From Candidatus Woesearchaeota archaeon (GTDB lineage Archaea; Nanobdellota; Nanobdellia; Pacearchaeales; GW2011-AR1): a DNA stretch of 64,000 bases. This document shows positions 3,001 to 20,527 of this stretch, piece by piece. The DNA is taken from NCBI GenBank assembly GCA_964647695.1, contig CAZYIS010000001.1:48275-112274 (forward strand), written 5' to 3'. Both the position numbers and the translations under genes were made by a program. The notes beneath the pieces are model-generated. The model saw only the letters and a program-made list of their open reading frames with translations. It had not been told where the DNA came from and ran no database searches. The stretch's first letter is position 1. The number at the start of each line of letters is the position of its first letter.

Positions 3001-3339
3001 ACCTATAGCTACTCTTATTCCTGCCTCCATTGCTTCCAGATGACTAGTAAACTTACAAAACTTTTCCTTTGCAACTTCTTCTGCAATGGTTAAAGCCACG
3101 GCCGGATCCAATGAACCAAATTGCTTTTCCAATTCTAAAATTCTTTCAACAATTTTAGTATTCGAAACCTGAGGATATAACACCGAAATCAGACCCACGA
3201 CTCTTTCAGCCAGGGAGTTTGCCAAAGGAACTTCAACTTCTCTAGCCGGATCTAATCCTTTTTCCCTAGCACCATTTGCAATTAAATAATTTCTTTTAAC
3301 TTCTTTTTCTATTTCCTTAAAATATTCCTTGATGTTCAT
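1..3339 (-). CDS. polD2: DNA polymerase II (PolD) large subunit DP2, C-terminally truncated by window edge
   Basis: By-eye reverse-frame translation from the ATG at 3339-3337 reads through to the window start without a stop (not exhaustively checked). The ORF track lists no complete minus-strand ORF in this interval, consistent with one long ORF lacking an in-window stop. The start overlaps the DP1 stop (ATGA). Translation is DP2-like (GARMGRPEKA, Cys clusters CNNCKEE/CEKCGN, HRGGTQDAPLV, C-terminal CIGCN..CLKCGG zinc finger). It is adjacent to DP1 and cdc6. Confidence 0.75.
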   Translation of the reverse strand, partial: MNIKEYFKEIEKEVKRNYLIANGAREKGLDPAREVEVPLANSLAERVVGLISVLYPQVSNTKIVERILELEKQFGSLDPAVALTIAEEVAKEKFCKFTSHLEAMEAGIRVAIGYMTLGYVSSPLEGFIQLKVKKTKDGKDFLAPYFSGPIRSAGGTEAGFSLVVVDYLREVFGYAKYDPTEDEVKRGIQECYAYHERVTNLQYLPSEQEIEFLMRNIPIQLTGDPSEDKEVYNYKDLPRIETNFIRSGFCLVMGEGIAQKAPKIFGRVTKLKQKGFKLTDWTFLEEFVKLQKKIKEGKAAGGTRGGATYMQDLVAGRPVFAHPSASGAFRLRYGRARTTGYSTLAISPATMGITNDFIAIGTQLKIEKPTKGCTVASCDSLDGPIVKLVDGSVKRIADYDTAIKIYHNVTEILYLGDILVPFGDFANRNHPLEKQGYIEQFWLEELRKEGGDSELMVDFEKAKELSLKYKISLHPNYIYFWTQIKYDSFLALVDWIAHGKLDNSHLLLPYSRIDAERFVKGKRALEIIGCEHLVSTENVILNEKDSFALLFNLGLDITEKRNIILEDEMNILSAKISEKEVLEVINSLSSVRIRDKLGTMIGARMGRPEKAKLRKLTGSPHVLFPVGEEGGRLKSFQSALEAGSVKADFTNFYCNNCKEETVYPKCEKCGNYCVKQFYCRECNDSLNEKCTQHEMGQEYSSKKIDIAKYFEHARKSVGLRNEDIGYVIKGVKGTSNKEHSCELLSKGILRAKHNLNVNKDGTIRYDMTEMPITHFRPREIGISIEKAKKLGYDKDVKGNILENDNQLVELFPHDIILPACPISPDEKADDVFLNVAHFVDEELEKIYKVEKYFNANKKEDLIGAYLACMAPHTSSAVVGRIIGFSKIQALLASPYIHAAMRRDCDGDEAAVMLLMDLLINFSRKFIPSHRGGTQDAPLVLNMHIRANEVDDMIFDVDVSNKMPLELFEAGERHAMPSEIKLEQVRQRLGGEREFIDLGFAYDTSDLNLGPLCSSYKLLPTMQEKVDSMMQLCSKIRAVDVTDVSRLVIERHFIRDTRGNLRKFSQQGFRCIGCNEKYRRPPLVGKCLKCGGRIIFTISHGSILKYMQPALDLA

Positions 3340-4948: not shown

Positions 4949-6157
4949 TTAAGAGTAAAGGGATTTTTCTAATATTTCTTTTGCTTTTTGTTTTATATTA
5001 GGTGCAAGCATGAGTTTTATTTCTCTCATCCTTCCATGCCTTCCTTTACTAATAACGTGAGTGTTAATCAAACCCAACATGTCAAATTCAGCCAAAATGT
5101 CTGAAACTCTTCTTTGGGTAAGTATTTCATTTTTAGTTTTTTCGCAAACTTCCTGATAATTATTATATACCTCTCCAGTAAATATATCACTATTGTTTTT
5201 TTGATCTGCTAAATTCATAATAGCATACAGAACCAATTGAAATTGTCTGGGTTCGCTTTCGATTATATCTAACATTTTATCTTTCTCTATTTTACTATTA
5301 GCCACGTCTATATGTAATAGAGTTATTTTCTTACTACTTTCTCTTTCAGCCAATTCTCCTGCAACCCTAAGTAAATCCAGCGCCCTTCTAGCATCTCCAT
5401 GCTCCCTAGCGGCATAGGCAGCACATTTAGCAATAACTCCTTCTTCCAGGATTGCATCTTTAAACGCACTATCTGCCCTTGCCTTTAATATATCTTGTAA
5501 TTGTAGGGCATTGTAGGGGGGAAATACTAGTTCTTCTTCTCCCAATGAACTCTTTACCCTAGGATCCAAATCATCCATAAACGTTAAACTATTACTTATA
5601 CCAATAATACTAATTTGAGCATTTTTTAATTCCGTATTTAATCTAGTAAGTGAATAAATGAATGTATCGGATATTTTTTTTACTGCTTGATCTATTTCAT
5701 CCAAAACCAAAATAACCATCTGTTTCTTATTATCAATTAATTCTACAAACCTCTTGTACACCTGATCCGTAGGCAATCCTGTAGAAGGCACATCTCCACC
5801 CAATTCACTTATAATTTCTGCCAACATTCTATATTCCGTATCTGCTACTTTCTTTAATTTACAATTAACATAAACAAACTTTAGACTATCTTCATCCGTT
5901 TTCTTCAAACGAGAAGTCATTTTACTAGCTACATGTTTAATAGATAGAGTTTTACCAGTTCCAGTTTTACCATAAACAAATAAGTTACTTACCTTTTCTC
6001 CTCTAAGAGCTGGAGCAAGTATGGATGCTATTAACTCAATCTGTTCATCTCTATGACCTATACTATCCGGATCATAATTTGATTGAAGCACAGTTTTATT
6101 TTTAAATAAATTATTATTTTCAAAAGAATCAAATATTGCATCTAATTTATCACTCAT
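4949..6157 (-). CDS. cdc6: Orc1/Cdc6 replication initiator (AAA+ with C-terminal winged helix)
   Basis: 402 aa. Walker A VYGKTGTGKT, Walker B VLVLDEID, sensor motifs. Lies directly beside an AT-rich intergenic region with ORB elements. Confidence 0.9.
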   Translation of the reverse strand: MSDKLDAIFDSFENNNLFKNKTVLQSNYDPDSIGHRDEQIELIASILAPALRGEKVSNLFVYGKTGTGKTLSIKHVASKMTSRLKKTDEDSLKFVYVNCKLKKVADTEYRMLAEIISELGGDVPSTGLPTDQVYKRFVELIDNKKQMVILVLDEIDQAVKKISDTFIYSLTRLNTELKNAQISIIGISNSLTFMDDLDPRVKSSLGEEELVFPPYNALQLQDILKARADSAFKDAILEEGVIAKCAAYAAREHGDARRALDLLRVAGELAERESSKKITLLHIDVANSKIEKDKMLDIIESEPRQFQLVLYAIMNLADQKNNSDIFTGEVYNNYQEVCEKTKNEILTQRRVSDILAEFDMLGLINTHVISKGRHGRMREIKLMLAPNIKQKAKEILEKSLYS

Positions 6158-6350
6158 TTTTACCTCTTTAATAAAAATTAGAACACTATCCTTATTATAA
6201 ACTTATCTATCCTCTAAGCATTGTTTCCTATGGAATAAAAAATAAGATTTTTGTATAATTTTTAAAAAAATCGAAAATACGACGATAATATGTTATTTTA
6301 CTAAAAATTATAGCTTTAATTTAAAAAAATAAATTCAAAAAATAGATTGA

Positions 6351-6380
6351 AACACCCACACCCTCACTTCCGTTGGAAAA
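6351..6380 (-). promoter_or_regulatory. ORB-like origin recognition box (reverse orientation)
   Basis: acacccacaccctcacTTCCGTTGGAAAaa. Dyad TTCCgtTGGAAA matches the ORB core tTCCAgTGGAAAc. The ACCC-rich tract is the complement of the ORB G-string. Confidence 0.6.
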
Positions 6381-6440
6381 ATAATTTAAAAAATATTTTA
6401 CGTGTAAACTGTTAATTAATAAGAACTTTAATATCTATTC

Positions 6441-6500
6441 TGTAATATATATAATATAATATATAATATATAATATATATATTTATAAATAAAAAATAGA
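6441..6500. repeat. (AT)n-rich duplex unwinding element-like tract
   Basis: tgtaatatatataatataatatataatatataatatatatattta lies between the two ORBs. Confidence 0.5.
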
Positions 6501-6543
6501 AAAAGAAAAAGTTAAAAAAATCATTTATAAATTTATTCATATA

Positions 6544-6576
6544 TTTCCAATAGAAATCATAGGGTGGGAGGGTAGG
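6544..6576 (+). promoter_or_regulatory. ORB-like origin recognition box (forward orientation)
   Basis: tTTCCAATAGAAAtcatagGGTGGGAGGGTAGG: ORB-like dyad followed by a G-string, inverted relative to the ORB at 6351-6380. Confidence 0.6.
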
Positions 6577-6752
6577 TCATTTTTTACTTTTTTCTATTAA
6601 TTTCATTCCTATTTCAATCTTTAATAATTCATTTTTAATTTTAAAAAAGTGCATTTCTAACTTTTTATCGTCTTTTTCTCTTGTTTCAGATACTAAAATA
6701 TATCTTAATGGATTATGGAAAAGTTTAAATATCATATCTTATACAATCAATT

Positions 6753-8512: not shown

Positions 8513-8579
8513 AAAATTATACTTTTTATCTAATTTTTAAACCTAATTACTCCTTTTTACCACCTATTCATAACTAATT

Positions 8580-11183
8580 TTATTTATTTCCTATGGCTTT
8601 CATATGTAATTCATGCATTCTCTTTAAAAAATTAGCCCTATCTTCCATCTTAATAAGATCCGATCTTCCTTCCAATGAAAGATTAACCCCAAAAGGACTT
8701 ACAAAAGGTGTTCTTATCTTCTTCAGCTTAACCGTTCCATTTTCAATCCACTTTAACACCTGCTCAGCACTTTTTATGTCCATTAAATCCTCAAAAACCT
8801 CTCTCCTTGCTTCTCTAAGTATGGGGAACTCATTACTTATCTTCTTTACTGCCACCAATAGAAATCCTGAATGCATCTGCTGTTTACCTACGCTCTTTTC
8901 TCTTCCCTTATAGTTTCTAAGAATCATCAAAGATCTAGCAGCACACTGTCTAAACCTTCGGTTAAGTATTTCGGTTCTTTCCACTGCCTCTTTCAATATC
9001 TCCCTCAAATTTTTACTTTTTACAAAATCAATTATCTTATTTTCATCCAATTCTGTTCCCGATATAAAGAAGCCATTATCATTTACTCCTATTTCTATAT
9101 CTCTATACTTTAGTCTAGCGGCAGCAAAAGCATAGGCCCTAGCCAAAGAATCATTTACTCTTCTACCATAGAGCGAATGAAACATTAATACTTCCTTATC
9201 TGATTTGAACTTCTCAACCACCAAAGTATTAACATCCGGAACTGCAGCAAACTTACTTTGTTCAAGAAAATAGTTATAAATCGTTTCAGCCACATGTTTT
9301 TTACAATAAACATTTTCCATAATAAATTCTATTGCTTCTTTCTTATTGTTCAATCTCTCTTTCAACAGCTTTCTAAACCGTCCAATGCTCAAAGCCACAT
9401 CAAAACTCAAGGGCAACTGTTCAGAAAACCAACTAGGGATTGTAGGATTTTTAGTAACCCCTGCCGAAACATAGGCCTTCATACCTCTGGAATAAAGATA
9501 TTGATATTTTGCTCCCCCTAGTACAAAAATATCTCCTCTTTTCATTCTCTCCAGAAAGGATTCATCAATCTTACCTATTATCTGCCCTCTCTGCTCAACC
9601 GGATTCTGAATTGTAACGCTTATGAATCCTTCTTCAGGAATAGTTCCTATATTAGTCATATACATAACTCTTGCCATCTTTCCTCTCTTTCCAATCTGAT
9701 TCTTTTCTTTATCATACCATATTTTAGCATAAACATTTCTATGTTCTAGAGCATACTCTCCTGCTAGATAACTAACCACATCAAAAAAATCTTCTTTGCT
9801 CAAATTTTCATAGCAATAACTCCTTCTAATGGTTGCAAGTAGTTCATCCACAGCCCATATTCTAGATATGGCCATTCCAAATATCTGCTGAGCCAGCACA
9901 TCTAAACAATTTTTTGGTATATCTGCTCTATCAATTTTACCCTCCACCATCTCTTTCATCAATATACTACATTCCACCAAGTCATCCCTATCCAAAACTA
10001 TGAATTCGCCCCTAGGATTCTCATGGAGTTTATGGCCTGCTCTTCCAATTCTTTGCAACGCTCTAGAAACCGACTTAGGACTTCTAATCATCACAACCAG
10101 ATCTATGCTTCCTATATCTATTCCCAGTTCCAAAGACGTACTGGAAACAACAACTTTCAATTGTCCTGCTCTCAATTTATCTTCAATCTCCAATCTTTTC
10201 TCCTTAGACATGGAACCATGATGGGCCCCTATCAAACCTTCATATTTTCCTGGAAAATGCATATCTAAAAAATGAATTATTCTTTCTGTAGCTGCCCTAG
10301 TATTAGTAAATATCAATGTGGTTCTATTTTTTTCAATCAATTCATCCAATAATTTGTAAAACTTTTTTTGATTTACTTGATTTTCCGCTTCCAGAATATT
10401 ATCTCCTGGATAATCCAGCCCAATTTCAATCTTCTTATTCAATTTAACTGCTGCAATTAAACAATCTCTCTGAGTTCCCACTAAAAACTTAGCTATTTCC
10501 TCCAGAGGAGATATGGTGGCACTAAGTCCAATACGCACCGGTTCAATTTTACTATAATTACACAGTCTTTCAAGAGTAAGTGAAAGGTAAACTCCTCGCT
10601 TATTAGTCAATGCGTGTATTTCATCCACTATAACAAATTCCAAATTCTTAACATTTTCCACAAACTTCTCAGTTGTCAATACTATGGCCAAACTTTCCGG
10701 AGTTGTAACATATATGTGTGGGCTCTTTCTAGCATGTTTAGCTCTTTCAGCCGCCGTTGTATCTCCTGTTCTTAATCCTACTCTTATCTTTTGCATCTTT
10801 ATTCCTTTTTTCAAGGCTAAAGCCTCAATTTCTTCGAGTGGATTAATTAAATTAACAAAAATATCATTGCTCAATGCCTTTAATGGAGAAGTATAGATTG
10901 CATATATCTTATCTTCCAGTTCATTTTTCAGTGCAAGAGAGACAATATAATTAATTATTCCCAGAAAAGCTGTAAGTGTTTTAGTTCCGCCAGTAGGTGC
11001 ACTAACCAGAATGTTTTTTCTATCATAAATATTTTTTACACCATATAACTGAGTCAATGAATAATCCTTAAACCTAGTAAAAAACCATTCTTTCACGATA
11101 GGATCTAGTATTGCACTAACTTCAGCACTCTTGAAAGGTTCAATATATTTTATTTCCGACATATAATTCTGCCTTGAGTTCAT
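8580..11183 (-). CDS. lhr: Lhr-like superfamily 2 DEAH/DEIH-box helicase (Lhr-core architecture)
   Basis: 867 aa. Motif I VSAPTGGTKTL (non-canonical: Thr replaces the Gly before the Lys), motif II VDEIH, motif III LSAT, motif VI QRIGRAGH. About 400-aa C-terminal WH/domain-4 region typical of Lhr-core. Confidence 0.85.
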   Translation of the reverse strand: MNSRQNYMSEIKYIEPFKSAEVSAILDPIVKEWFFTRFKDYSLTQLYGVKNIYDRKNILVSAPTGGTKTLTAFLGIINYIVSLALKNELEDKIYAIYTSPLKALSNDIFVNLINPLEEIEALALKKGIKMQKIRVGLRTGDTTAAERAKHARKSPHIYVTTPESLAIVLTTEKFVENVKNLEFVIVDEIHALTNKRGVYLSLTLERLCNYSKIEPVRIGLSATISPLEEIAKFLVGTQRDCLIAAVKLNKKIEIGLDYPGDNILEAENQVNQKKFYKLLDELIEKNRTTLIFTNTRAATERIIHFLDMHFPGKYEGLIGAHHGSMSKEKRLEIEDKLRAGQLKVVVSSTSLELGIDIGSIDLVVMIRSPKSVSRALQRIGRAGHKLHENPRGEFIVLDRDDLVECSILMKEMVEGKIDRADIPKNCLDVLAQQIFGMAISRIWAVDELLATIRRSYCYENLSKEDFFDVVSYLAGEYALEHRNVYAKIWYDKEKNQIGKRGKMARVMYMTNIGTIPEEGFISVTIQNPVEQRGQIIGKIDESFLERMKRGDIFVLGGAKYQYLYSRGMKAYVSAGVTKNPTIPSWFSEQLPLSFDVALSIGRFRKLLKERLNNKKEAIEFIMENVYCKKHVAETIYNYFLEQSKFAAVPDVNTLVVEKFKSDKEVLMFHSLYGRRVNDSLARAYAFAAARLKYRDIEIGVNDNGFFISGTELDENKIIDFVKSKNLREILKEAVERTEILNRRFRQCAARSLMILRNYKGREKSVGKQQMHSGFLLVAVKKISNEFPILREARREVFEDLMDIKSAEQVLKWIENGTVKLKKIRTPFVSPFGVNLSLEGRSDLIKMEDRANFLKRMHELHMKAIGNK

Positions 11184-11254
11184 TATTTAAGTCTTATGAA
11201 ATATAAAATTTTTCAAATCAGTAGCTTTAAATAAGTTATTCGGTTTTATCTTCC

Positions 11255-11587
11255 ATGCCCATCATATCCCAACAAAAAAAAGACAAAATATCTGAACAAA
11301 TACTACATTATCTTTTTGAAAACTCTCCCGAAAGCAAATTCACTTCCGACATAGCCAAAGAAATCGCTCGAGATGAAGAATTTATTAAAATAATTCTTGC
11401 TGATTTGTCAAAAAAAGGCTTAATCAATCTAATAACTAAAAATTCTTCCGGCGTTTCCTACCTAAAAAGACAAAGATGGCGTCTAAGCAATCAAGCATTC
11501 CAAATTTATTCCAATGCTCAGTCCCATAAAAACCAGAATGCTGTATTTCAGAATAACAATATTTATAATAACTCTGATGACTCTTGA
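11255..11587 (+). CDS. hypothetical small protein (possible winged-helix)
   Basis: 110 aa. Stop overlaps the start of the next ORF (ATGA-type overlap). Confidence 0.4.
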   Translation: MPIISQQKKDKISEQILHYLFENSPESKFTSDIAKEIARDEEFIKIILADLSKKGLINLITKNSSGVSYLKRQRWRLSNQAFQIYSNAQSHKNQNAVFQNNNIYNNSDDS

Positions 11588-12285
11588 ATTCTATGGACAA
11601 GGATCCAATTAAAGAAGCATTTACCCGCGCAAAAATTGATATTCAATCACTTAAAGACCAATTCTCTTCACTATTAAATGAAATTCAAGATATTAAACGA
11701 ACTCTCAATACTATATCTAATAAACCCTCAGACAGACAGATAGACCAACAGACAAACCAACAGATAAATAAGGCAGATATCCAACAAGAAGATGAATTAT
11801 ACGAACCTCCAACATCTGATTGGCCCTATAAACGTCTAAAACCCCATGTTTACAGACTTTCCACAAGAAATAGGGGGGTTCCAACAGACAGACAGACAAA
11901 CCAACAGACAGACAGACAAACACATAATAAAGGGAAAATCGACAAAATAGCAGCCATTGACCAGGTTTCCCAGATACTAGAATCCCTAGATTCCATGAAA
12001 AAAGAGCTCAGATCGAAGTTTAAACATTTAACCAATCAAGAAATGCTAGTTTTTTCAACCATCTATCAACTTGAAGAAGAAGGTTTTTCCGTCGATTATC
12101 CTCTAGTTTCTCAGAAATTAAGTCTTACCGAGTCATCCATACGAGATTATGTTCTTAAGCTAACAAAAAAAGGTATTCCCATCGGTAAAATCAAAGAAAA
12201 CAATAAGAAAATCTTCCTTAAAATCTCTTCAGAGTTCAAGAAATTGGCTTCTCTGGATACGATTTTAGCTTTGAGAGAATTATAA
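11584..12285 (+). CDS. coiled-coil protein with C-terminal MarR-like winged HTH and internal DRQTNQQT peptide repeats
   Basis: 233 aa. Repeats PSDRQIDQQTNQQ and DRQTNQQTDRQTH are encoded by CAGA-type tandem DNA repeats. C-terminal region reads as wHTH (LTNQEMLVFSTIYQLEEEGF...IRDYVLKLTKKG). Confidence 0.5.
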   Translation: MNSMDKDPIKEAFTRAKIDIQSLKDQFSSLLNEIQDIKRTLNTISNKPSDRQIDQQTNQQINKADIQQEDELYEPPTSDWPYKRLKPHVYRLSTRNRGVPTDRQTNQQTDRQTHNKGKIDKIAAIDQVSQILESLDSMKKELRSKFKHLTNQEMLVFSTIYQLEEEGFSVDYPLVSQKLSLTESSIRDYVLKLTKKGIPIGKIKENNKKIFLKISSEFKKLASLDTILALREL

Positions 12286-12597
12286 AAAATTAATTAACCG
12301 GTTAAACGAACAACGTTTAAGCTACGCTATTGCTAACCTCATCTTTCCAAAAAGCTAAAAATCAGCCCTTTTAAGCTCTATAAAGGCAAATCTTCAATTT
12401 TTCCTACAGTTTAAATCAGAGAAATTGATCATTTTGTTCCAATTTCTCCTCACTTTTGCTTGAACGTGAAAACCCTATTTTTCTATTAAACCTCATTCCG
12501 CCATTGTTTTTTGACACTATTACTCTCAAACTTTCGCTTTCAAGGCCCCTCAGTAAAACTCTCTCTTTTTGACTCAAATTGATCATTTTTTCCATAC

Positions 12598-13275
12598 TCA
12601 TGGGCCCTCACTTTTCACTTTTTCTGCTTCTTTTTCACTATTTTCATCATTTGACTTATTAACGCGAACCTTTTGACCCTTGTTAACTCTCACTTTTCCA
12701 TATTTTGCTAGTTTTTCACGTATTTCTGCCGGTACAAAGACCCTCTTTTTACCGTTTTTCTCTGTTATTTCCATAATTAATCCCTCATTCTTCTGTTTTA
12801 TAGCATTTATTTGTCCTCTTACGGTTGATCGCTCTTTTCCTAGTAAAAGTGCCAAATCTTCATAGCTTAGCTTCATTTCGCTGTTCATTAAGGTAAAAAT
12901 GAGGAGTCTTTCATTTGCACTAAGATTCTTTAGAATTTCGTAAAAATTGCCTGTTTGAACAGCTGTTTGAACAGCAATATCAACAGCTTCAACAGCTGTC
13001 TGTTTACCTAAAACAGCCGATTTCTTAAACACCTGTTTGTTTTTGTCGCCCTCAGAAACCACATCAACTCCTTCGCGCAAACTTTCGATCTCATCTTTAA
13101 TCGACGCTAATTCCAATTTTAACTCATTTAATACGTCAAACACCTGTTTGTCTCTCCCATCCAAGTACTTTATCCACTTTCCAACAGCATCAATATCTTT
13201 TTTAACAGAATTAAAACCTTCTTGAGTTTTTTCCTCAAGTTTATTTTCCTTTTTTTTAAATAACCAGTCTAACAT
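12598..13275 (-). CDS. coiled-coil protein with C-terminal winged HTH; contains QTAV repeats encoded by CAGCTGTTTG repeats
   Basis: 225 aa. C-terminal LSANERLLIFTLMNSEMKLSYEDLALLLGKERSTVRGQINAIKQ is wHTH-like. Convergent with the previous gene. Confidence 0.5.
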   Translation of the reverse strand: MLDWLFKKKENKLEEKTQEGFNSVKKDIDAVGKWIKYLDGRDKQVFDVLNELKLELASIKDEIESLREGVDVVSEGDKNKQVFKKSAVLGKQTAVEAVDIAVQTAVQTGNFYEILKNLSANERLLIFTLMNSEMKLSYEDLALLLGKERSTVRGQINAIKQKNEGLIMEITEKNGKKRVFVPAEIREKLAKYGKVRVNKGQKVRVNKSNDENSEKEAEKVKSEGP

Positions 13276-13772
13276 AATTATATATCAAGTCCTATACTAT
13301 ATAAACCTTACGTCTATAGCCTCTAAAACCGTCGATAACCTTTTTAATTTTTCATCAAAAAATGCTCAGACAAACACCCTTAAACAGCAGACAAACACCC
13401 TCTATGCTCCAAAAAACAGCTGTTTGAACACTCAAAAACACCTGTTTTATCAATAAAACTGCTTCAAACACTCTTAATTTTATTAAAAAATCATAAAAAA
13501 ATGCTCAAACTTTTAAGCAAAACCATTAATTTTGATTATCTATAAAAACCGTTAAAAATTAACAATTAAAAACCGTTAAAAATTGATAAAATCGATATTT
13601 TTAGCATATTTTCATCAAAAAATAACAAAACATTTAAATACCTCCTATTCCTATAATAAGTATACACCTCTTTTTCCCGGAGGAGGACGTTTGATCATTT
13701 AAATCTAGTACGATTAAACTTCCTCTTCTAGGAGTTCAACCTCTTTTTCAGACAAAAAGTTTAAAAACCTCC

Positions 13773-13985
13773 GTGTATTATAGATTATACGAGGACAAAA
13801 AAATAATAAATATGGTAAAATATGGTTCAATTTGGTCAACATCAGACATTTTTTGTCAAAAATGTCACAAAAACACCCGCGGAGTACAATTGAAAAGTAT
13901 AGAAATGGCAAAACATGGTCTTTCTTTAGAACTTTGTAGCTCGTGTATCTCCGAAATTGCCAGTGATTCTTCAAATTTCGTCTAA
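13773..13985 (+). CDS. small zinc-ribbon protein (CxxC...CxxC)
   Basis: 70 aa with CQKCH and CSSC pairs. Preferred over the overlapping antisense 93-aa ORF 13714-13995, which looks like junk. Confidence 0.3.
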   Translation: MYYRLYEDKKIINMVKYGSIWSTSDIFCQKCHKNTRGVQLKSIEMAKHGLSLELCSSCISEIASDSSNFV

Positions 13986-14001
13986 AAATTAACAAAAAAC
14001 G

Positions 14002-14253
14002 ATGAAAATACTAAAAACCAAACGATCCTTCCGGAAGGAGTTCCGCAGACAGATCAAAATGGCCCTTGTTGCAGCCATCGGATTCACCATTGCCTTTGCC
14101 TGGAGGGATTCTTTGTCCCAAATTCTTGAAAAAACCGCTGAAAACCTAGGTTACGAAGTTGGTTTGGGCTCTTCGCCCCTTTTTATGCCTTTTTTAACCA
14201 CAATTTTAGGCGTTTTGCTCATAATCCTACTCTCAAAAATCTTTTCCGACTGA
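14002..14253 (+). CDS. small membrane protein
   Basis: 83 aa, two hydrophobic helices. Immediately upstream of mscL. Confidence 0.45.
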   Translation: MKILKTKRSFRKEFRRQIKMALVAAIGFTIAFAWRDSLSQILEKTAENLGYEVGLGSSPLFMPFLTTILGVLLIILLSKIFSD

Positions 14254-14274
14254 TTTTTCAGCCCGTTAAGGTCT

Positions 14275-14619
14275 ATGAAAGGAGGTATCATCATGGTAGT
14301 TCAAAAAAGCATAGGTTTAGCCAAAGAATTCAGAGAATTTTTGAAAGAATATAAGGTCATAGGACTCGCTGTTGCCGTAATCATGGGTTTTGCAGCCAAT
14401 ACAATGATCAAATCTTTAGTTGATAACATAATAATGCCCCTAATAACTCCATTTATACCTGGAGGAGCCTGGCAAACAGCCGTTTGGAATTTCTGGGTCT
14501 GGAAAGGAATCGCCTGGGGATCGTTTTTATCAGCTTTAATCTACTTCCTCATCATAGCATTGGTTGTTTTCCTCATATCCAAGTTCATGCTTAAGGAAGA
14601 AAAGGTAACTAAGAAGTAA
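14275..14619 (+). CDS. mscL: large-conductance mechanosensitive channel MscL
   Basis: KEFREFLKEYKVIGLAVAVIMGFAANTMIKSLVDNIIMPLI matches the MscL N-terminus/TM1 signature. Two TM helices, about 110 aa. Confidence 0.8.
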   Translation: MKGGIIMVVQKSIGLAKEFREFLKEYKVIGLAVAVIMGFAANTMIKSLVDNIIMPLITPFIPGGAWQTAVWNFWVWKGIAWGSFLSALIYFLIIALVVFLISKFMLKEEKVTKK

Positions 14620-14636
14620 ACAGCTGTTTATTCTTA
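14617..14636 (+). terminator. palindromic TAAACAGCTGTTTA hairpin overlapping the mscL stop, followed by a T-rich tract
   Basis: Inverted repeat centred on CAGCTG. Same core as the 19446 element. Confidence 0.4.
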
Positions 14637-14684
14637 TCATTTAAACACCCATAAGCTTATATTTTTCATTTTTTTATTATATTT

Positions 14685-15164
14685 ATGCCACAAAAGGGGC
14701 TAGATAGGCAATCCGAACTCGAATCCCTTTCCCTAGAAGAGGTTCAAAGACGAAAAAACTGGAGACAAAGTCATCCAATTTATAGGAATTACGCACGCGG
14801 AAATCCGGTTGAACATCAACAAGCGGAGCTGTCCATTGGAAGGACGGACATCGAATTCAAACACCTTCCCCAACACCCGGAGAACATAGACCTCAATCCA
14901 GGAAAGCAAGGTCCAAGCCAACAGCTGTTGGACTCCGCATTACCCTATTCTTTTCATTCTCCAAAAAAAGGAAAGTCTCATTTTAGAAGAACCATCTTCC
15001 AAACAACCTATAGACATGGAGTTAACCAGCTCCTAAAAACCAAAGGCATTAATCCCTATGAGTGGGAACCTTTTGATAATTTTGTAATTATCTCAGCAGA
15101 AGAATCAGATTTTTTAGAAAATTTAGTCAAGGTATTCCCAGAATATTATGCTCAAACCTTCTAG
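14685..15164 (+). CDS. hypothetical protein (GC-elevated island gene)
   Basis: 159 aa. Local GC about 45% against a roughly 30% background. Amino-acid usage is Arg/Gln/His/Pro-rich, unlike the host core. Confidence 0.45.
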   Translation: MPQKGLDRQSELESLSLEEVQRRKNWRQSHPIYRNYARGNPVEHQQAELSIGRTDIEFKHLPQHPENIDLNPGKQGPSQQLLDSALPYSFHSPKKGKSHFRRTIFQTTYRHGVNQLLKTKGINPYEWEPFDNFVIISAEESDFLENLVKVFPEYYAQTF

Positions 15165-15280
15165 CATCGCTAACAACTTTAATTCACCTATAAAGTTCGG
15201 TTAATTATCCAAAATCTTACCAAAAAACCACTGCCTTTTAACAATTATTTTCAGCCATTTTAGCCTAATTTCATGGAAAA

Positions 15281-15290
15281 GTATAAAAAC
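15281..15290 (+). promoter_or_regulatory. TATA-like box GTATAAAAAC 30 nt upstream of ATG (leaderless-type promoter)
   Basis: cgAAAAGTATAAAAAC module repeated at 15758 and 17077. Confidence 0.45.
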
Positions 15291-15310
15291 TCGGCAGGGG
15301 TTAAATTTTT

Positions 15311-15652
15311 ATGGAAATAAAACCTCAAGATTTTCGTGGAAGTCTAGCAGCAATGCCTTTACAGGCAATGATAAGAGAAGAGCAGGAGCAGAATTCTCGA
15401 TATTCAGAAGAACACTGGAAATGGTACTGTGCACGAGCAGATAGACTTGAAAGAACAATATTTGGAACTTTAGCATTGGCTTCTGAAATGGTGGCTGCTT
15501 CTTACCTATACTCTGGGCTTACACTTAATAATCCAAAAGATTATCTAGATGCAGGAATTGTTGGTTTATTTGGCTTATTTTCTGGTGCCACAAGCTATTC
15601 CGCGCATAGATCTTTGCGTAAAACAAGCCAAAAACCAGCAGTTTCTAACTAA
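15311..15652 (+). CDS. hypothetical protein, cassette-like (shared promoter and C-terminal SQKPAVSN tail)
   Basis: 113 aa. Preceded by a GTATAAAAAC TATA-like box 30 nt upstream of the ATG. C-terminus and 3' flank shared with 15788-16057. Confidence 0.45.
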   Translation: MEIKPQDFRGSLAAMPLQAMIREEQEQNSRYSEEHWKWYCARADRLERTIFGTLALASEMVAASYLYSGLTLNNPKDYLDAGIVGLFGLFSGATSYSAHRSLRKTSQKPAVSN

Positions 15653-15757
15653 TTCTCAAGTTCGTTTAATCAAAAGGCAGCCAGGTGTCCTAAAAAATAA
15701 TAACTTCAGTCCATGTGAGGCCGAAGGCCGAACGCGCCCGGCATAAAACATCGAAAA

Positions 15758-15767
15758 GTATAAAAAC
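15758..15767 (+). promoter_or_regulatory. TATA-like box GTATAAAAAC 30 nt upstream of ATG
   Basis: Same module and spacing as 15281. Confidence 0.45.
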
Positions 15768-15787
15768 GCAACAATGGTTAATTTTTT

Positions 15788-16057
15788 ATGAAAGGATTTT
15801 ATATATTAAAAAGACCGGAAGGAAAGCCAATAGGCAGACCAAAATTGGTTTCCAGAGATGTTCCTTTTGATAGGGAAGATCTAGAGTTTAAAGTCAAATT
15901 AAGTCGCCCAAGAGGAGCAAACGCAGGATTAATCTCTGACGATTCTGATCGTCATTATGAAAAGCGCTCAATGGGATCATCACATATAAAAGCAAATTAT
16001 GTTACCTATGCAGTTCAGTACTATAAAATAAGCCAAAAACCCGCAGTTTCTAGCTAA
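15788..16057 (+). CDS. hypothetical protein, cassette-like (shared promoter and C-terminal SQKPAVSS tail)
   Basis: 89 aa. Identical promoter spacing to 15311. Shared C-terminal ISQKPAVSS and 3' flank. Confidence 0.45.
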   Translation: MKGFYILKRPEGKPIGRPKLVSRDVPFDREDLEFKVKLSRPRGANAGLISDDSDRHYEKRSMGSSHIKANYVTYAVQYYKISQKPAVSS

Positions 16058-16160
16058 AGGAGGAGTTCGCCTAATCACTCTTAACTGCCGTTTTGAGGTC
16101 CCTAACGTCGAAAGTACGCTTTAATCGATACATTTTTATACTCTTACTCTAATCAGACTT

Positions 16161-16445
16161 ATGGATAATTTAGTTTACAAATTAGAATTAGAAATAAAAG
16201 GTATGAAACTTCCAGGAGTTATAGAAGTACATGACGCATTACCTGTGGAAAAGCAAGTGTTATATCTAAATGATAATTTTAAAACTATTGCAAGTATAGA
16301 ATCTGGATACTATGTAGTTACTCAAGTAGTCAGATCTTTAGATTTGACTTTTTCAGATAGACGTCTAAAAAGGGCAGAACAATTAGATTTGCCGGTTGTT
16401 TTTGCAACATACTTTGGTAGAAATAGACCTCCAAAGTCAGAATAA
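16161..16445 (+). CDS. hypothetical protein
   Basis: 94-aa ORF in the repeat-rich island. Confidence 0.4.
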   Translation: MDNLVYKLELEIKGMKLPGVIEVHDALPVEKQVLYLNDNFKTIASIESGYYVVTQVVRSLDLTFSDRRLKRAEQLDLPVVFATYFGRNRPPKSE

Positions 16446-16506
16446 TTCTTATAGCTTAATCTTTCAATCACTGCTTAGAACTTTCAGCATAGATATAAAG
16501 TTCGTT

Positions 16507-16800
16507 TTAATACTCTCTAGGTAATTCGTTAGTTTGAAAATTTATGAATGCATCAACATGATCCTTTTCTAATTTTCTTCTAGTTCTGGAAACTATATAT
16601 GAAAGTAATGTTGAACCATAGCAAATAGGTGTCGCAACATCCACTATATCTGCAGCTATTCTTTCTTCAGCTTCAGGTAGTCTTCCGCCAGACATTGACT
16701 CTCCAGCAAGTTTGCTTACTCCATAAACTCCAACTAATCCTGAAACTAACGATGTCGTTACAAGACCTATTTCAATTTTTCTTAATAATCCTTTTACCAT
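16507..16800 (-). CDS. hypothetical membrane protein
   Basis: 97 aa. Hydrophobic N-terminus. Flanked on both sides by GTTCGTTTAAT motif copies. Confidence 0.4.
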   Translation of the reverse strand: MVKGLLRKIEIGLVTTSLVSGLVGVYGVSKLAGESMSGGRLPEAEERIAADIVDVATPICYGSTLLSYIVSRTRRKLEKDHVDAFINFQTNELPREY

Positions 16801-17076
16801 ATTATTTTAGTAAAACCTAGATTAATAAATCTTTCCGCTCAAACTTTCTAGCGCAAAAGAAGGGTTCGTTTAATTAATCAGAAAATTAAAAGTTCGCATA
16901 ACTAGTCTTTCATAATCTTTATATACTTCCTATGCTTTAGTATATTGTATCTACGGATACACCTCTTTTTCCCAGGAGAAGGAGTTTGACCAAATTCTAA
17001 ACAAACTCAGGTTGATCTCCTCTCTTGGAACATTTAATAATATTATATCGGAAGGGTTCGTTTAATTTTTAGAAAG

Positions 17077-17086
17077 GTATAAAAAC
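17077..17086 (+). promoter_or_regulatory. TATA-like box GTATAAAAAC 18 nt upstream of ATG
   Basis: Same module as 15281 and 15758. Confidence 0.4.
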
Positions 17087-17094
17087 GCTTTAGA

Positions 17095-17460
17095 ATGATA
17101 AAATTTATGCACAAAATAGGAAATACAAATTGCAGATTAGACATTTATGAAGTTCAAGGAGATATTGGAAAAGCAGTTCTTCGCCATTTATCCACAAGAG
17201 ATACTCTAGTAGAATATACTCCTAGAATAGGCAATAGTGCTGAACATTATTTTTCTATATCTATAGAAAGAGAAGGTTCTCAAAGGGAAGTTGTAATGCC
17301 TTATAGAGAAGCTAACTTTAGTGAAACTCTGAAAAGATTTTATGCTGCTGCTAAAAGAGTATTTAAAAAAGAAACTAATGAAAATGAATTAGCTGATTCA
17401 ATGAATTTAGTAAGAACTTTAAATGGTTCCCCTCAGCCAATTCTTAGTCCAAGTTACTAA
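17095..17460 (+). CDS. hypothetical protein
   Basis: 121 aa. Preceded by the same GTATAAAAACGC promoter module. Confidence 0.45.
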   Translation: MIKFMHKIGNTNCRLDIYEVQGDIGKAVLRHLSTRDTLVEYTPRIGNSAEHYFSISIEREGSQREVVMPYREANFSETLKRFYAAAKRVFKKETNENELADSMNLVRTLNGSPQPILSPSY

Positions 17461-17712
17461 TAAAATAATTAATTTTATTTCTTTTTTAGAATAAGTTTGC
17501 CTTTTTCAGTTTCTACTATCAATTCATCTCCGGCTTTAAACCCTGTTTGGCTTAGAATAACCTCTGGAACATTGATTTTATACTTATAATATGCTTGCCC
17601 TTTATACTCTCTAGATTTTTCTTTTAGTATTTTCATAATTAAAAAAGTGAGAATAACTATTTAAACTTTTAGAGACCGAAAGATTTATATACTTTAGAGA
17701 CCTAAATATATA

Positions 17713-18195
17713 ATGGTTAAGGGTTTATGTGTTAATTGTAAGAAAGAAAAAGAAATAGCTTTATCCGGAAAAGCAAAAGGATTGTGTAAAGTTTGTTATA
17801 AAAAATTAATTTGGAAACCTAAATTAATAGAATGTAAACGGTGCAAAAGAATGTTACCTAATCAGGCATTTGGTTTTTGTAAAAGCTGTTATCTCTCGGT
17901 CTTTCATATGGATAGAATGAAAGAACATAGTATTAAACAACATCACAATATTGATCCTAAATTATGGAAAGAAATAACTAAAAAATGTGTCGTTTGTGGT
18001 TTCGATAAAATAGTAGATTTACACCATCTAGATCACAATCATGATAATAATTCTAGGGAAAATCTTATAGGTTTATGCCCTAATCATCATAGAATGATTC
18101 ACAATATAAAAACTAGAAAAGAAGTATTAGATATTTTGAAGGAAAATGGATATGTTCCTCTTGAAAAATATCTAGATAACGAGTTCTATAAATAA
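17713..18195 (+). CDS. HNH endonuclease with N-terminal Cys4 zinc-ribbon pairs
   Basis: 160 aa. Four CxxC pairs. HNH motif DLHHLDHNHDNNSRENLIGLCPNHHRMIH. Confidence 0.75.
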   Translation: MVKGLCVNCKKEKEIALSGKAKGLCKVCYKKLIWKPKLIECKRCKRMLPNQAFGFCKSCYLSVFHMDRMKEHSIKQHHNIDPKLWKEITKKCVVCGFDKIVDLHHLDHNHDNNSRENLIGLCPNHHRMIHNIKTRKEVLDILKENGYVPLEKYLDNEFYK

Positions 18196-18245
18196 TACTT
18201 TTCAGTTTTCCATATGTATTTAAAACCCTATTTTATGAGATTTTC

Positions 18246-18737
18246 ATGGAAAATTTAATAAAATTAGAACAATTACCCTATGCCCGAGATCTAAATTTAA
18301 TTCTAAATTATCTAAAACTAGTTTTTCCTGATTTTCCAGAAAGAAATTGTCAGGATGCAGCTAGAATTACTTCAAGAGTAACTAAGTTAAGAGAGCTGGC
18401 CGGTTATTTTAGTGAAATACCTGGACAAAGCAGGGAAGAATGGCACGCTTGGAACTATGATCCTGAAAGAAAAATAATTGTAGATTTAACAGGTAAGCAA
18501 TTAGCAGAAGATTTACCTGAAATATTTATTACTTCTAAGCATGATCCCCGATATAGATTAACCCTAAGTAATACTCGTGAAGCACGAAGCGAATATGGCT
18601 GGTTTTGTGAACCTTCTTTTCTAAAAGATTACTATGCCTATGCTAAAAATCCTGAAAGATTCTACCTGGATGGAAGAAAAAAGATTATTAGAGATTTAGT
18701 TCCTGTTTCTTTAGACCTAGCATTGCAAATATCCTGA
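18246..18737 (+). CDS. hypothetical protein
   Basis: 163 aa. Co-oriented string downstream of the HNH gene. Confidence 0.45.
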   Translation: MENLIKLEQLPYARDLNLILNYLKLVFPDFPERNCQDAARITSRVTKLRELAGYFSEIPGQSREEWHAWNYDPERKIIVDLTGKQLAEDLPEIFITSKHDPRYRLTLSNTREARSEYGWFCEPSFLKDYYAYAKNPERFYLDGRKKIIRDLVPVSLDLALQIS

Positions 18738-18795
18738 TTAAAGGTCCAAAGCCAAGATTTAAATATTCAGAAAAAGAAATTTTCTAGCAAACAAC

Positions 18796-19110
18796 ATGTT
18801 AAACGGAGAAATTAATTTGGAAAATGTAGCAAAAAATGCTTACTTTGGAGCCCAGGGCAATACAATCAATGTAGTCTATGGTTTAGACATGGGTAGAGTT
18901 CAATATAAGGAATTTAGATTATCTGATGGAATATTTCTTACTTCCTTGGGCACAACCCTGGATGATTTTAAAACAAGATGTACTTCGGTTGTTCCTACAG
19001 AAGAAGTTAAAAGATTAGTCTATGAAACCAGAACTCCTCTTAGTATCAGTTTATTAGAAGAACAGGTGTTTGTTAACGCTAGAAACGATCAATTAACGGG
19101 GGCTGATTAA
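18796..19110 (+). CDS. hypothetical protein
   Basis: 104-aa ORF. Stop is 1 nt before the next start. Confidence 0.4.
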   Translation: MLNGEINLENVAKNAYFGAQGNTINVVYGLDMGRVQYKEFRLSDGIFLTSLGTTLDDFKTRCTSVVPTEEVKRLVYETRTPLSISLLEEQVFVNARNDQLTGAD

Positions 19111-19111
19111 A

Positions 19112-19447
19112 ATGAGTCTAATAAACAAAATTCAAAAAGGAATTGTTCTCGGAGCATCATCCGCCATACTATTAGGATTCGCAGGAGTTACATATTTTGG
19201 CAGCCAACATACTAAAGCCCAAGATGATTTGATGTCTTCTTCTAATATTACAGATTATCCTGCCCTTATGCAAGATTTAAACACAAAAATAGAATATTCT
19301 GCAGATTTAACCATTGCCGGCGGAGCCCTATTGGGACTTTATGGTCTTGGTTCTTTAATAAATCGAAGAAGAGACGCACAAAATAATCAAAAATTAATCA
19401 ATCTATTAAGACTGGTTGCTGATGAAAGAAGCAATGCTAAAAATTAA
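19112..19447 (+). CDS. hypothetical two-TM membrane protein
   Basis: 111 aa. Followed immediately by a perfect palindrome, AAACAAACAGCTGTTTGTTTTT. Confidence 0.45.
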   Translation: MSLINKIQKGIVLGASSAILLGFAGVTYFGSQHTKAQDDLMSSSNITDYPALMQDLNTKIEYSADLTIAGGALLGLYGLGSLINRRRDAQNNQKLINLLRLVADERSNAKN

Positions 19448-19467
19448 ACAAACAGCTGTTTGTTTTT
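19446..19467 (+). terminator. perfect palindrome AAACAAACAGCTGTTTGTTTTT directly after a stop codon (intrinsic-terminator-like)
   Basis: 10-bp inverted repeat plus T5. Confidence 0.45.
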
Positions 19468-19511
19468 ATCCTAAACAAAAGTTTTAAAAGAGATTAATTT
19501 ATGCTATTTTT

Positions 19512-19874
19512 ATGAAACTTGAAGATATTACTCCAGAATTAAAGGAAGGAGAGTTAGTTTTAATAAAAACTACTCAAAATTCTCATGCCCTGGGTACATT
19601 CAGCGATGGAAATGAAAAGAGAATATTCTTACATCAACCATCCTATTATCTAGGAAAACCAGTCAATCTAGACGGAAAGATCAAACTAGAAGTTTCTCCC
19701 GGAATAGATTCTCGTTCCTATAGTCAAATAGGCCAAATTTATCGTGGAAAGAAAGAAATTGTAAAATACTTAGAATCCCATCCCGATCTAAAAGGTCATG
19801 CCGATTGGGTTAAAAAACTAGATGCTCCATTTGAATTACCAAAAACCGATGTTCTACGTACACTAAGATTATAA
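19512..19874 (+). CDS. hypothetical protein
   Basis: 120-aa ORF. Confidence 0.45.
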   Translation: MKLEDITPELKEGELVLIKTTQNSHALGTFSDGNEKRIFLHQPSYYLGKPVNLDGKIKLEVSPGIDSRSYSQIGQIYRGKKEIVKYLESHPDLKGHADWVKKLDAPFELPKTDVLRTLRL

Positions 19875-19938
19875 TTTTTATAGCCCAGTAGTGATTTTTA
19901 CCAATTAACTTTAAATATCCTTCAAAAGTGAGATTTTT

Positions 19939-20460
19939 ATGACAAACAAAGCAAATTTTAATAGATTGTTGGAAAATCTATTCCATCCCGAAGGAGTTAC
20001 TCTAGAAATTGCTGAAAATAATCGTATCCAACTTCCAGTTAACTATGTTTGGACTCCTAGTGGCACTTACATATTACATAATTACTCTCCTAAGGAGTTA
20101 GCTTCATTAAAAATAAACTCACCTAACTTTATCCCTGACAAACCCTATAAATATATTCCTAAGGCAAGACTATCTTTTGATAGGTCCATGTCCCCTAATG
20201 AATTTAGAGAAAATAATTTAATGGTTGCCACTTTTGGTGATAGCGGAGCCGATACTCTTGCAGATATTGCTCGACAGTTTTCTCAAAAACCCTATATATT
20301 TGGACATCAAATCGGAGAAAATCATCCTTCTATTCTTTCAAGTTTAGCTTTAGACCTTCCATTTGTCTCGGGCGGTTTAGTCGTACACGCAAATGCCTAT
20401 GCCAATTCAGATGGCTATATAATCAATCATTTTAAACCTGAAGTTTATCATTTCGATTAG
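19939..20460 (+). CDS. hypothetical protein
   Basis: 173-aa ORF. Confidence 0.45.
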   Translation: MTNKANFNRLLENLFHPEGVTLEIAENNRIQLPVNYVWTPSGTYILHNYSPKELASLKINSPNFIPDKPYKYIPKARLSFDRSMSPNEFRENNLMVATFGDSGADTLADIARQFSQKPYIFGHQIGENHPSILSSLALDLPFVSGGLVVHANAYANSDGYIINHFKPEVYHFD

Positions 20461-20527
20461 TTCGTTCAAGCTCACTTAACAGAATTTTAATACATACCTC
20501 TATATACTTGAGAGTGTTTGATATAAT

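Follow-up and report, generated by a model that had tools for sequence, protein, structure and literature searches.

How are ORFan genes taken into a very small genome, and how are they expressed once they are there? The genomes of DPANN archaea are tiny, yet large shares of their genes are unexplained ORFans. Here we consider one locus in a 64,000-nucleotide (nt) stretch of DNA from a Candidatus Woesearchaeota archaeon (contig CAZYIS010000001.1 of assembly GCA_964647695.1). We refer to this whole stretch as the window and use its coordinates throughout. From 14685 to 18218, it carries an array of small open reading frames (ORFs) among which a short sequence, the GTTCG box, recurs. As the best explanation, we propose a hypervariable chromosomal locus, in which small, individually transcribed leaderless genes lie between copies of a conserved composite non-coding module. 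Judging from sequence comparisons, we also lean towards the view that the array is an archaeal analogue of the terminator/promoter cassettes of phage T4, known as promoter-early stem-loop (PeSL) cassettes, and that units may be exchanged by recombination between modules. For comparison, we retrieved the loci of relatives (L009, L029, and so on) by way of three markers: the Lhr gene, a GC-rich 24-mer that is conserved, and homologues of P14685, the first gene of the array.

What recurs in the array? Seven + strand boxes of the form GTTCG-N2-4-TAAT lie within 15195-17066. A model that had read the window without database searches (the sequence-only reading) had reported seven copies of a motif here, and all seven are present: four are exact fits to its consensus, and of the other three, one carries a G substitution, another an additional T, and a third is degenerate. 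We list them along with a degenerate eighth box and a box outside the array.

15195-15205, + strand: first GTTCG box, GTTCGGTTAAT, with G where the earlier consensus had T/C; 31 nt past a stop codon
15660-15670, + strand: second GTTCG box, GTTCGTTTAAT; 8 nt past a stop codon
16065-16075, + strand: third GTTCG box, GTTCGCCTAAT; 8 nt past a stop codon
16500-16511, + strand: fourth GTTCG box, GTTCGTTTTAAT, with one additional T; 55 nt past a stop codon
16864-16874, + strand: fifth GTTCG box, GTTCGTTTAAT; no intact + strand ORF before it
16892-16902, + strand: sixth GTTCG box, GTTCGCATAAC, degenerate; no intact + strand ORF before it
17056-17066, + strand: seventh GTTCG box, GTTCGTTTAAT; no intact + strand ORF before it
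20460-20471, + strand: degenerate eighth box, GTTCGTTCAAGC, overlapping the stop codon of the 19939-20460 gene, at the right edge of the last replaced segment (19112-20475)
12301-12311, - strand: a further GTTCG box, beyond the array, in the convergent spacer that follows a conserved winged helix-turn-helix (wHTH) gene (11584-12285)

The sequence-only reading had placed most copies 8-35 nt past stop codons, which holds for the first three boxes and not for the fourth, nor for the last three. In all cases, a box is co-oriented with its upstream ORF and lies 0-95 nt past that ORF's stop. Boxes are also found in convergent spacers, where no promoter follows; elsewhere, the next TATA box follows 11 to about 90 nt after the box. 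The spacing of the boxes is roughly regular (465, 405, 435, and 364 nt). In four copies, another box of the form GC-CA-A-YTTTCTAGC (of the GCTCAAACYTTCTAGC or CAGTTTCTARC type) lies exactly 11 nt 5' of the GTTCG box. The box at 16864 is preceded by a remnant, GCTCAAACTTTCTAG, that matches the "AQTF*" end of the gene at 14685. The eighth box has a counterpart in L029 (GTTCGTCTAAC), and the box at 12301-12311 has counterparts in L025, L028, L019, L009, and L029.

The motif is far more common than expected for the composition of the window. The consensus RGTTCGYYTAAT has 5 exact matches in 64 kb, as compared to 0.08 expected, and none of 100 shuffles reached 5; with one mismatch, there are 11 matches versus 2.0 expected. 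Of the 10 GTTCG pentamers in + strand intergenic DNA of the window, 7 lie inside the array, and the other 3 are in unrelated contexts, so that no box-like copy was found among these pentamers elsewhere in the 64 kb. Two further copies, at 11692 and 11796, lie within coding sequence and encode conserved peptides (IKRT and ELYEP) of the wHTH protein; we treat these as coincidental. In L028, we also noticed a perfect palindrome made from the box sequence (4192-4220, GGTTCGTTTAAG-gttt-CTTAAACGAATT), between two module copies that have no ORF between them.

The boxes are part of a larger module. In its full form, from 5' to 3', it comprises a CCAAAAACC-type and a TTTCTAGC-type box, an AARGTTCG-N-TTTAAT box, a spacer, a GC-rich hairpin element, and a promoter with a transcription factor B recognition element (BRE) and a TATA box, with the ATG 29 nt 3' of the promoter. 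All + strand cassettes come with a BRE/TATA promoter of their own, 29 nt before the ATG in three cases and about 26-30 nt before it in the cassette at 16161. The 29-nt spacing is the genome-wide pattern of leaderless genes, and the majority of genes in the window are leaderless, with BRE/TATA about 30 nt 5' of the ATG. The parts of the array are as follows, with amino acids abbreviated as aa and with the ratio of nonsynonymous to synonymous substitution rates given as dN/dS.

14685..15164, + strand: first array gene, P14685; 159 aa, no family; its last codons (AQTF*) extend into an upstream box, box1
15150..15274, + strand: module IG1, with box1 (GCTCAAACCTTCTAGC) at 15150-15165, the GTTCG box at 15195-15205, CTTACCAAAAAACCACTGCC at 15216-15235, and a spacer
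15275..15680, + strand: cassette 1, with BRE/TATA at 15276-15290, a leaderless ORF at 15311-15652, CCAAAAACCAGCAG and TTTCTAAC at 15628-15649, the GTTCG box at 15660-15670, and 10 nt more
15681..15787, + strand: module part C+D, with CCAGGTGTCCTAAAAAATAA, the hairpin GTGAGGCCGAAGGCCGAACGCGCCCGGCAT at 15715-15744, and BRE/TATA at 15753-15767; 80% identical to L029 7240-7342
15788..16057, + strand: cassette 2 ORF, P15788; 89 aa; its 8 final codons (SQKPAVSS) arise from read-through into the module
16033..16160, + strand: module IG3, with CCAAAAACCCGCAG and TTTCTAGC, the GTTCG box at 16065-16075, the spacer CTCTTAACTGCCGTTTTGAGGTCCCTAA, and a promoter (TATA at ~16131-16141)
16161..16445, + strand: cassette 3 ORF, P16161; 94 aa; kept in L029 with 66% aa identity and dN/dS of 0.22
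16473..16511, + strand: module IG4, with box1 (GCTTAGAACTTTCAGC) at 16473-16488, 11 nt, and the GTTCG box at 16500-16511
16507..16800, - strand: cassette 4 ORF; 97 aa; its stop codon is within the GTTCG box
16837..17066, + strand: ORF-less module block, with a box1 remnant at 16837-16852, GTTCG boxes at 16864-16874, 16892-16902, and 17056-17066, a TATA-like sequence at 16917-16926, and a hairpin RNA copy at ~16959-17035
17067..18218, + strand: insertion segment, which starts immediately 3' of a GTTCG box; BRE/TATA at 17072-17086 and an ORF at 17107-17460 (117 aa)
17475-17636, - strand: AbrB/MazE-like ORF in the insertion (Pfam/PHROGs domain matches)
17713-18195, + strand: HNH endonuclease in the insertion (Pfam/PHROGs domain matches)

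Within the array, parts of the module are paralogous while the ORFs are not. The promoter modules of the genes at 15311 and 15788 (15272-15316 and 15749-15793) are identical at 37 of 45 positions, which makes them the most similar of the 1891 promoter pairs in the window (mean 18, standard deviation 3.9, next best 31). The sequence-only reading had counted a third near-identical module, but that one is just 60% identical. It had also given two of the three genes an identical TATA-to-ATG spacing of 30 nt. The third gene probably starts at the ATG at 17107 rather than at 17095, as it also does in the annotation of a metagenome-assembled genome (MAG); with this start, all three genes have the same 29-nt spacing. 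On the other side of the ORFs, the 3' modules at 15619-15672 and 16024-16077 are 80% identical over 54 nt, and a weaker likeness extends to ~15698 and ~16103. The ORF bodies between these paralogous flanks are unrelated, both in DNA and in protein, so we agree with the sequence-only reading that two proteins with unrelated bodies share an SQKPAVS tail and homologous 3' flanks. Because ORFs stop at differing points relative to the module (before it, within box1, past box1, or at the TAA of the GTTCG box), the module is a DNA element rather than coding sequence, and the tail arises from ORFs running into it to varying extents. Shared C-terminal tails might also suggest a diversity-generating retroelement, but there was no reverse transcriptase in any Pfam scan, and the shared segment is the non-coding module.

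Little can be said of the proteins from their families. None of six array ORFs belongs to a Pfam or PHROGs family, and the neighbouring ORFs that were tested have no NCBIfam family. The cassette ORFs do show a coding signature (GC content at the first and at the second codon position exceeds that at the third). The cassette 1 protein, P15311, has 113 aa and 2 predicted transmembrane helices, with no homologue among 5.8 billion proteins; for P15311 and P15788 together, the one homologue found is a close relative of P15788. P14685 has homologues at the same locus in L029, L036, and L035 (80%, 55%, and 32% identity), with dN/dS of 0.18 against the L029 orthologue.

Could the repeated modules be an artifact of assembly? 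The sequence-only reading allowed that the shared tails might be chimeras, but a 9-kb contig from an NCBI MAG (GCA_037135175.1, corresponding to window 8571-17607) and six ENA/JGI/Logan contigs are 99.9-100% identical to the window across the junctions. Because seven contigs from independent assemblies reproduce the region, it is not chimeric. The sole single-nucleotide difference from the MAG contig over 9 kb is at 15725, in the loop of GTGAGGCCGAAGGCCGAACGCGCCCGGCAT, and several assemblies break at this GC-rich element. The sequence-only reading also proposed looking for alternative junctions between cassettes. We did find contigs that diverge from the window at their ends (at 15707-15749 and at 16930), but the tails that diverge consist of Nextera adapter (CTGTCTCTTATACACATCT), which makes them low-coverage artifacts and not alternative junctions.

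Evidence that the ORFs turn over while the modules remain comes from L029, a close relative. Over window 8577-15272, the two genomes are collinear at 88.7% nt identity; beyond that point, conserved modules are interspersed, in a mosaic, with slots that cannot be aligned. In five of the seven slots, sequence has been inserted, deleted, or replaced. The segment 15275-15680 (promoter, P15311, tail, and box) is absent from L029, which has 22 nt instead. In place of the P15788 body, L029 has an unrelated 80-aa membrane ORF between conserved flanks. The P16161 slot is kept. At 16513-16836, where the window has the minus-strand ORF, L029 has an unrelated 44-aa + strand ORF, and similarity is lost at the end of one GTTCG box and regained at the start of the next box1. 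The ORF-less block at 16837-17066 is 91% identical to L029 8322-8552. The next segment, 17067-18218 (P17095, the AbrB-like ORF, and the HNH endonuclease), is absent from L029, with 9 nt instead; 18219-19111 is kept; and 19112-20475 is replaced, up to the degenerate box. Because all of the alignable intergenic DNA is 71-93% identical, the unalignable stretches are replacements rather than the result of drift.

The junctions between the two genomes are at 15275, 15680, 15793, ~16046, 16512, 16837, 17066, 18219, and 20476, and all of these are at the edges of promoter or box elements. The junctions at 15680 and 20476 fall 10 nt and 4 nt after a box, and others are at an ATG, a TATA box, the tail, or the start of box1, and not at the GTTCG box. 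No duplications are seen at the junctions, and a repeat search found no units with terminal inverted repeats at their ends. Retained ORFs are under purifying selection: four array or island genes that are kept in L029 have dN/dS of 0.18-0.33, as compared to 0.01-0.15 for six of nine flanking genes. Furthermore, dS along the locus varies from 0.18 to 1.1, and the spacer of IG3 is closer to that of the distant L025 than to that of L029; both findings point to a mosaic history.

More distant relatives show the same conservation of modules. Six further relatives that are distinct in sequence and show the locus also have boxes of the same kind there, with different ORFs; L009, L025, L028, L035, and L036 have the same kinds of elements with other ORFs. 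In tblastn searches over ten loci, the flanking genes (three wHTH-type proteins, DUF5654, and MscL) have 40-78% aa identity, while no homologue of a cassette ORF was found, and the P14685 orthologues in L029, L035, and L036 came to light later. IG1 is collinear with L025 7305-7522, L009 4620-4355 (- strand), L029 7086-7217 (84% identical), and L037 1-115. IG3 is homologous to L025 7888-7929 (83%) and to L029 7574-7688. IG4 is 93% identical to L029, where the similarity ends at 16512, and 85% identical to L009, and it also matches L035. L009 has a box doublet like that at 16864/16892; the six + strand boxes of L035 all lie within its array; and L028 has two module copies without an ORF between them. 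The core of the GC-rich hairpin element is 97-100% identical in 8 loci (L026, with 3 copies, and L024, L021, L019, L022, L025, L028, and L009), usually with AATAGCCACAATAAT just before it, and L029 has a variant with a compensatory stem change, GGCGC-GAA-GCGCC. The element is 10-30 nt before the promoter in window IG2, L025, L029, and L037, and ~60 nt before it in L009.

L037 contains the one homologue of P15788 that was found. This protein, P0006 (82% aa identity), directly follows a complete IG1-type module and ends in ...KSKKK* before a 3' module of the cassette 1 type, so that both the tail and the 3' module differ from those in the window. Body and module can thus be separated, and the SQKPAVS tail is due to read-through. 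The sequence-only reading had taken conserved boundaries around variable bodies as a sign of recombination-mediated cassette exchange, and the core of this idea is supported by the five slots that differ in L029 and by the L037 body with its different module; its analogies to integrons and shufflons are not (see below). As a separate observation, the array cargo of relatives includes toxin-antitoxin pairs (DUF4258/DUF2283, Fic/Doc with a ribbon-helix-helix protein, and PemK) and a cupredoxin, at L021 369-781 (- strand), L009 1923-2481 (- strand), L035 13082-13408, and L025 7988-8359.

How might such a locus work? From its position, the 3' half of the module (the GTTCG box, plus the hairpin where present) would mark the upstream transcript's 3' end or insulate it, and the 5' half would drive the next gene, which would make each gene an autonomous unit. 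The sequence-only reading had mentioned co-regulated leaderless small genes that share a terminator or operator; this fits the anatomy, and we retain it as part of our best explanation. The repeated modules would then serve as short stretches of homology at which general recombination could swap units, with sister chromosomes, related strains, or acquired DNA as partners. The recombination genes Mre11 and Rad50 are present in the window.

Several points weigh against this scenario. Break-points at module edges would also arise if the modules were merely the sole conserved sequence, and the patches of homology are short (~40-230 nt) and diverged (~80%). Two of the junctions, at 16512 and 17066, are flush with the 3' end of a box, as would also be expected from a site-specific mechanism. 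The GC hairpin is in just one intergenic module of the window, and in other genomes it also occurs outside of arrays. As for the GTTCG box, it has neither a consistent T-tract nor a consistent hairpin, and only its position suggests that it is a terminator. We considered an attC-like or terminator hairpin, but RNA and DNA folds of all of the 3' modules, on both strands, were no better than shuffles (z from -1.3 to +1.8). Similarly, pairing between box1 (AACTTT) and the arm of the box (AAAGTT) scored 6.0 of 7 over 40 boxes, as compared to 5.6 in shuffles; it is perfect only in copies of the IG1 type, and we therefore reject it as a property of the boxes in general.

Alternatively, the box might be purely regulatory, either an operator for a DNA-binding protein of the locus or a signal in 3' untranslated regions, and gene turnover might be ordinary island dynamics that is independent of the modules. 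The conserved wHTH proteins (11255-11587, 11584-12285, and 12598-13275 on the - strand) would be candidates to bind it. The box sequence is kept across species whose Lhr helicases are 59-83% identical, and it adjoins the conserved pair of wHTH genes in every relative that we examined. On the wHTH side, the box is inverted in the window and in L029, which a DNA-binding site would tolerate, and around the neighbouring wHTH gene there is another palindromic motif (AACAGCTGTTTG), which shows that the locus is rich in operator-like sites. We nevertheless think that this is unlikely, although we rank it first among the alternatives: it would leave unexplained why break-points fall at the edges of modules, why a promoter and a box come along with the inserted units, and why paralogous copies of promoter and tail flank the extra cassette. 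Also, a distance from box to TATA that varies from 11 to ~90 nt is unlike a fixed operator. More doubtful, in our estimation, is a dedicated system of site-specific cassette capture, an integrase-independent or trans-acting analogue of integrons, in which the box would be att-like and a recombinase or endonuclease encoded elsewhere would insert promoter-bearing cassettes just 3' of it. This would account for a unidirectional array with one co-oriented box per cassette, for boxes that abut or overlap stop codons, and for the ends of similarity to L029, which are 0-1 nt from the 3' end of a box at 16512 and 17066 and 10 or 4 nt after a box at 15680 and 20476. ORFan and toxin-antitoxin cargo, as in integrons, the ORF-less module copies in L028, and genes for homing-type endonucleases (HNH and LAGLIDADG-like) in the locus also fit. 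But other junctions coincide with an ATG, a TATA box, the tail, or the beginning of box1; no clean second copy of the box ends the inserted segments; and the box shows neither a hairpin nor inverted repeats, whichever strand is considered. Furthermore, Pfam scans of the ORFs in 11.2-32 kb and of most ORFs of more than ~190 aa in 32-62 kb (1-3300 and many small ORFs lay outside these scans) found no IntI, no tyrosine or serine recombinase, and no transposase. The bolder proposal, which we rate lower again, is that the GTTCG-N-TTTAAT box is the recognition site of a cassette-capture machinery of DPANN archaea that places units with their own promoter (ORFan, toxin-antitoxin, or endonuclease genes) directly 3' of the box. 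If so, it would be a second, structurally unrelated solution to the task of integrons, acting on double-stranded linear sites at a fixed archaeal locus across the clade.

It seems very improbable that one ancestral unit was duplicated in tandem and its copies then diverged, or that the motif is due to chance. The near-regular spacing of the boxes and the paralogous flanks might suggest duplication. We reject it because the bodies cannot be aligned, in DNA or protein, while the flanks are 80-82% identical; also, one slot holds a gene on the opposite strand, and slots differ between genomes that are ~89% identical. A chance motif is ruled out by the shuffles.

Which known systems does the array resemble? 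We return to our preferred explanation, recombination between terminator/promoter modules. The PeSL cassettes of T4-type phages are thought to shuffle ORFans, and they are proposed and in part demonstrated to be recombination patches (Arbiol et al. 2010, PMC2839356; Comeau et al. 2014, PMC4122927). As in PeSLs, short conserved composites of a terminator side and a promoter separate the small ORFan genes of a hyperplastic region, each gene would be transcribed as an autonomous unit, a GC-rich stem-loop is next to the promoter (here, in some modules), and indels or replacements between close relatives end at or in the motifs (here, in the window versus L029 and in L037). On the other hand, the array is in a cellular archaeal chromosome instead of a phage; the promoters are archaeal BRE/TATA promoters with leaderless mRNAs, as opposed to the sigma-70 type; and the most constant element is a linear GTTCG-N-TTTAAT box without a stem-loop, with a hairpin in some modules only. 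The array is known from its sequence, while promoter or terminator activity and mini-circles belong to the PeSL side of the comparison. For the haloarchaeal virus HGTV-1, a conserved TATA and inverted-repeat motif before most ORFs of the left arm was proposed to be PeSL-like in regulation or shuffling (Sencilo et al. 2013, as described in PMC3950731). That virus shares with the array an archaeal-type promoter motif that is repeated before many small ORFs; it differs in being a viral genome with a haloarchaeal host and unrelated sequence, and PMC3950731 cites no comparative evidence for replacement slot by slot.

Integrons and clusters of attC sites lacking integron-integrases (CALINs), including archaeal ones (Ghaly et al. 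2022, PMC9668308), are likewise tandem, mostly co-oriented short ORFs that each have a recurring site, and they likewise have ORFan and toxin-antitoxin cargo with high turnover. An adjacent IntI is not required for a CALIN. However, the boxes do not fold as attC hairpins and lack R''/R' cores, and GTTCGTT does not fit the attC core GTTRRRY. Integron cassettes are generally promoterless and are expressed from a common promoter, Pc, whereas each + strand cassette here has its own; and the junctions are not at one fixed point. With no integrase among the scanned ORFs either, the integron-like arrangement that the sequence-only reading had entertained does not hold up, nor does the shufflon-like one: all seven boxes of the array are direct repeats on the + strand, with no inverted pairs, and no invertase or other recombinase was found in the scans. 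Miniature inverted-repeat transposable elements (MITEs) and insertion sequences would differ in having terminal inverted repeats around the units and target-site duplications, and the L029 junctions have no such duplications. We conclude that the array is neither an integron nor a shufflon nor a MITE. It would instead work like autonomous cassettes of the PeSL or moron type, but in a cellular archaeal chromosome and with a distinct linear 3' box. Morons, which are reportedly autonomous promoter-gene-terminator insertions between conserved genes of phages (work attributed to Juhala et al. 2000 and to Hendrix et al.), resemble the cassettes in being self-contained transcription units between resident genes whose presence varies among relatives. 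They differ in that they are not known to share a conserved boundary module or to form an array. In our literature searches, we did not come across an array of this kind described for the chromosome of an archaeon.

If the modules are indeed recombination substrates, then the PeSL principle reaches from phages to the chromosome of a cellular archaeon. The locus would be a conserved device in which ORFans are gained, lost, and swapped while staying instantly expressible, as each slot supplies a (predicted) strong leaderless promoter and a 3' boundary. The combination of GTTCG box, GC hairpin, and promoter is a signature that can be searched for to find platforms of accessory genes in uncultured archaea. 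The modules are also candidates for archaeal 3'-end or insulator elements, which are a poorly defined class, and the locus is a defined test bed for how ORFans enter genomes.

The surroundings of the array are cellular. The window has a low GC content (33%), and it is chromosomal DNA of a DPANN archaeon of the Nanoarchaeota type; it encodes Orc1/Cdc6, the small subunit of PolD, ArgRS, a proteasome subunit, Mre11/Rad50, FttA, and PCNA, as well as the Lhr helicase and one tRNA-Thr. By the Lhr protein, the closest genomes that we found are MAGs of Nanoarchaeota, Pacearchaeota, and Woesearchaeota. The array locus is bounded by the genes for DUF5654 and MscL and by tRNA-Thr/ArgRS. We also considered a viral origin: of four scans of viral contigs, three had no match, and the 46 matches of CATCGCTAAYAACTTTRAT are to conserved phage coding sequence without any box, so these matches are due to chance. 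Adjoining Orc1/Cdc6 (4949-6157), window ~6160-6750 is probably a replication origin, and the GC content falls as low as 0.25 across 6-8 kb.

Rfam had no match at its gathering threshold for the whole window, and for 13200-17700 there was nothing at E <= 5 except tRNA-Thr. We did notice a candidate for a conserved hairpin RNA of ~60-75 nt, CCC-RGGAGRAGGA-GUUUG...CAAAC-UCCUCUYCU-GGG, which does not match Rfam. It has two copies per genome, each ~25-30 nt past a TATA-like box: window 13663-13740 and 16959-17035, L029 5587-5660 and 8437-8515, L035 9321- and 11291-, and L028 2982-. One copy is upstream of a Zn-ribbon gene (13773-13985), and the other makes up a "cassette" without an ORF within the array. 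Of the 19 pairs that RNAalifold predicts, 2 have compensatory changes.

Free-standing genes for homing-type endonucleases are found at the locus in different genomes: the HNH gene in the window (17713-18195), and others in L008 and L009. The ORFs at L008 3116-4156 and L009 6252-6689 (- strand) look LAGLIDADG-like by eye only, and the latter is 34 nt from a GTTCG box.

Finally, the conserved proteins encoded at 11584-12285 and 12598-13275 (- strand) adjoin the array in every case. Both have an N-terminal coiled coil, a low-complexity repeat (TNQQ/DRQT, or QTAV) that is encoded by DNA repeats, and a C-terminal wHTH, and neither has a Pfam or NCBIfam family above threshold. A palindromic motif, AAACAGCTGTTTG (or AAACACCTGTTTG), occurs at 12958, 13028, 13139, 13415, 13437, 14619, and 19451. 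It clusters within and upstream of the wHTH gene at 12598-13275, and it does so in six relatives as well. Two extra copies, which are identical at 20 of 22 positions, lie directly past the stop codons of MscL and of the gene at 19112; they are 4832 nt apart and bracket most of the variable region.

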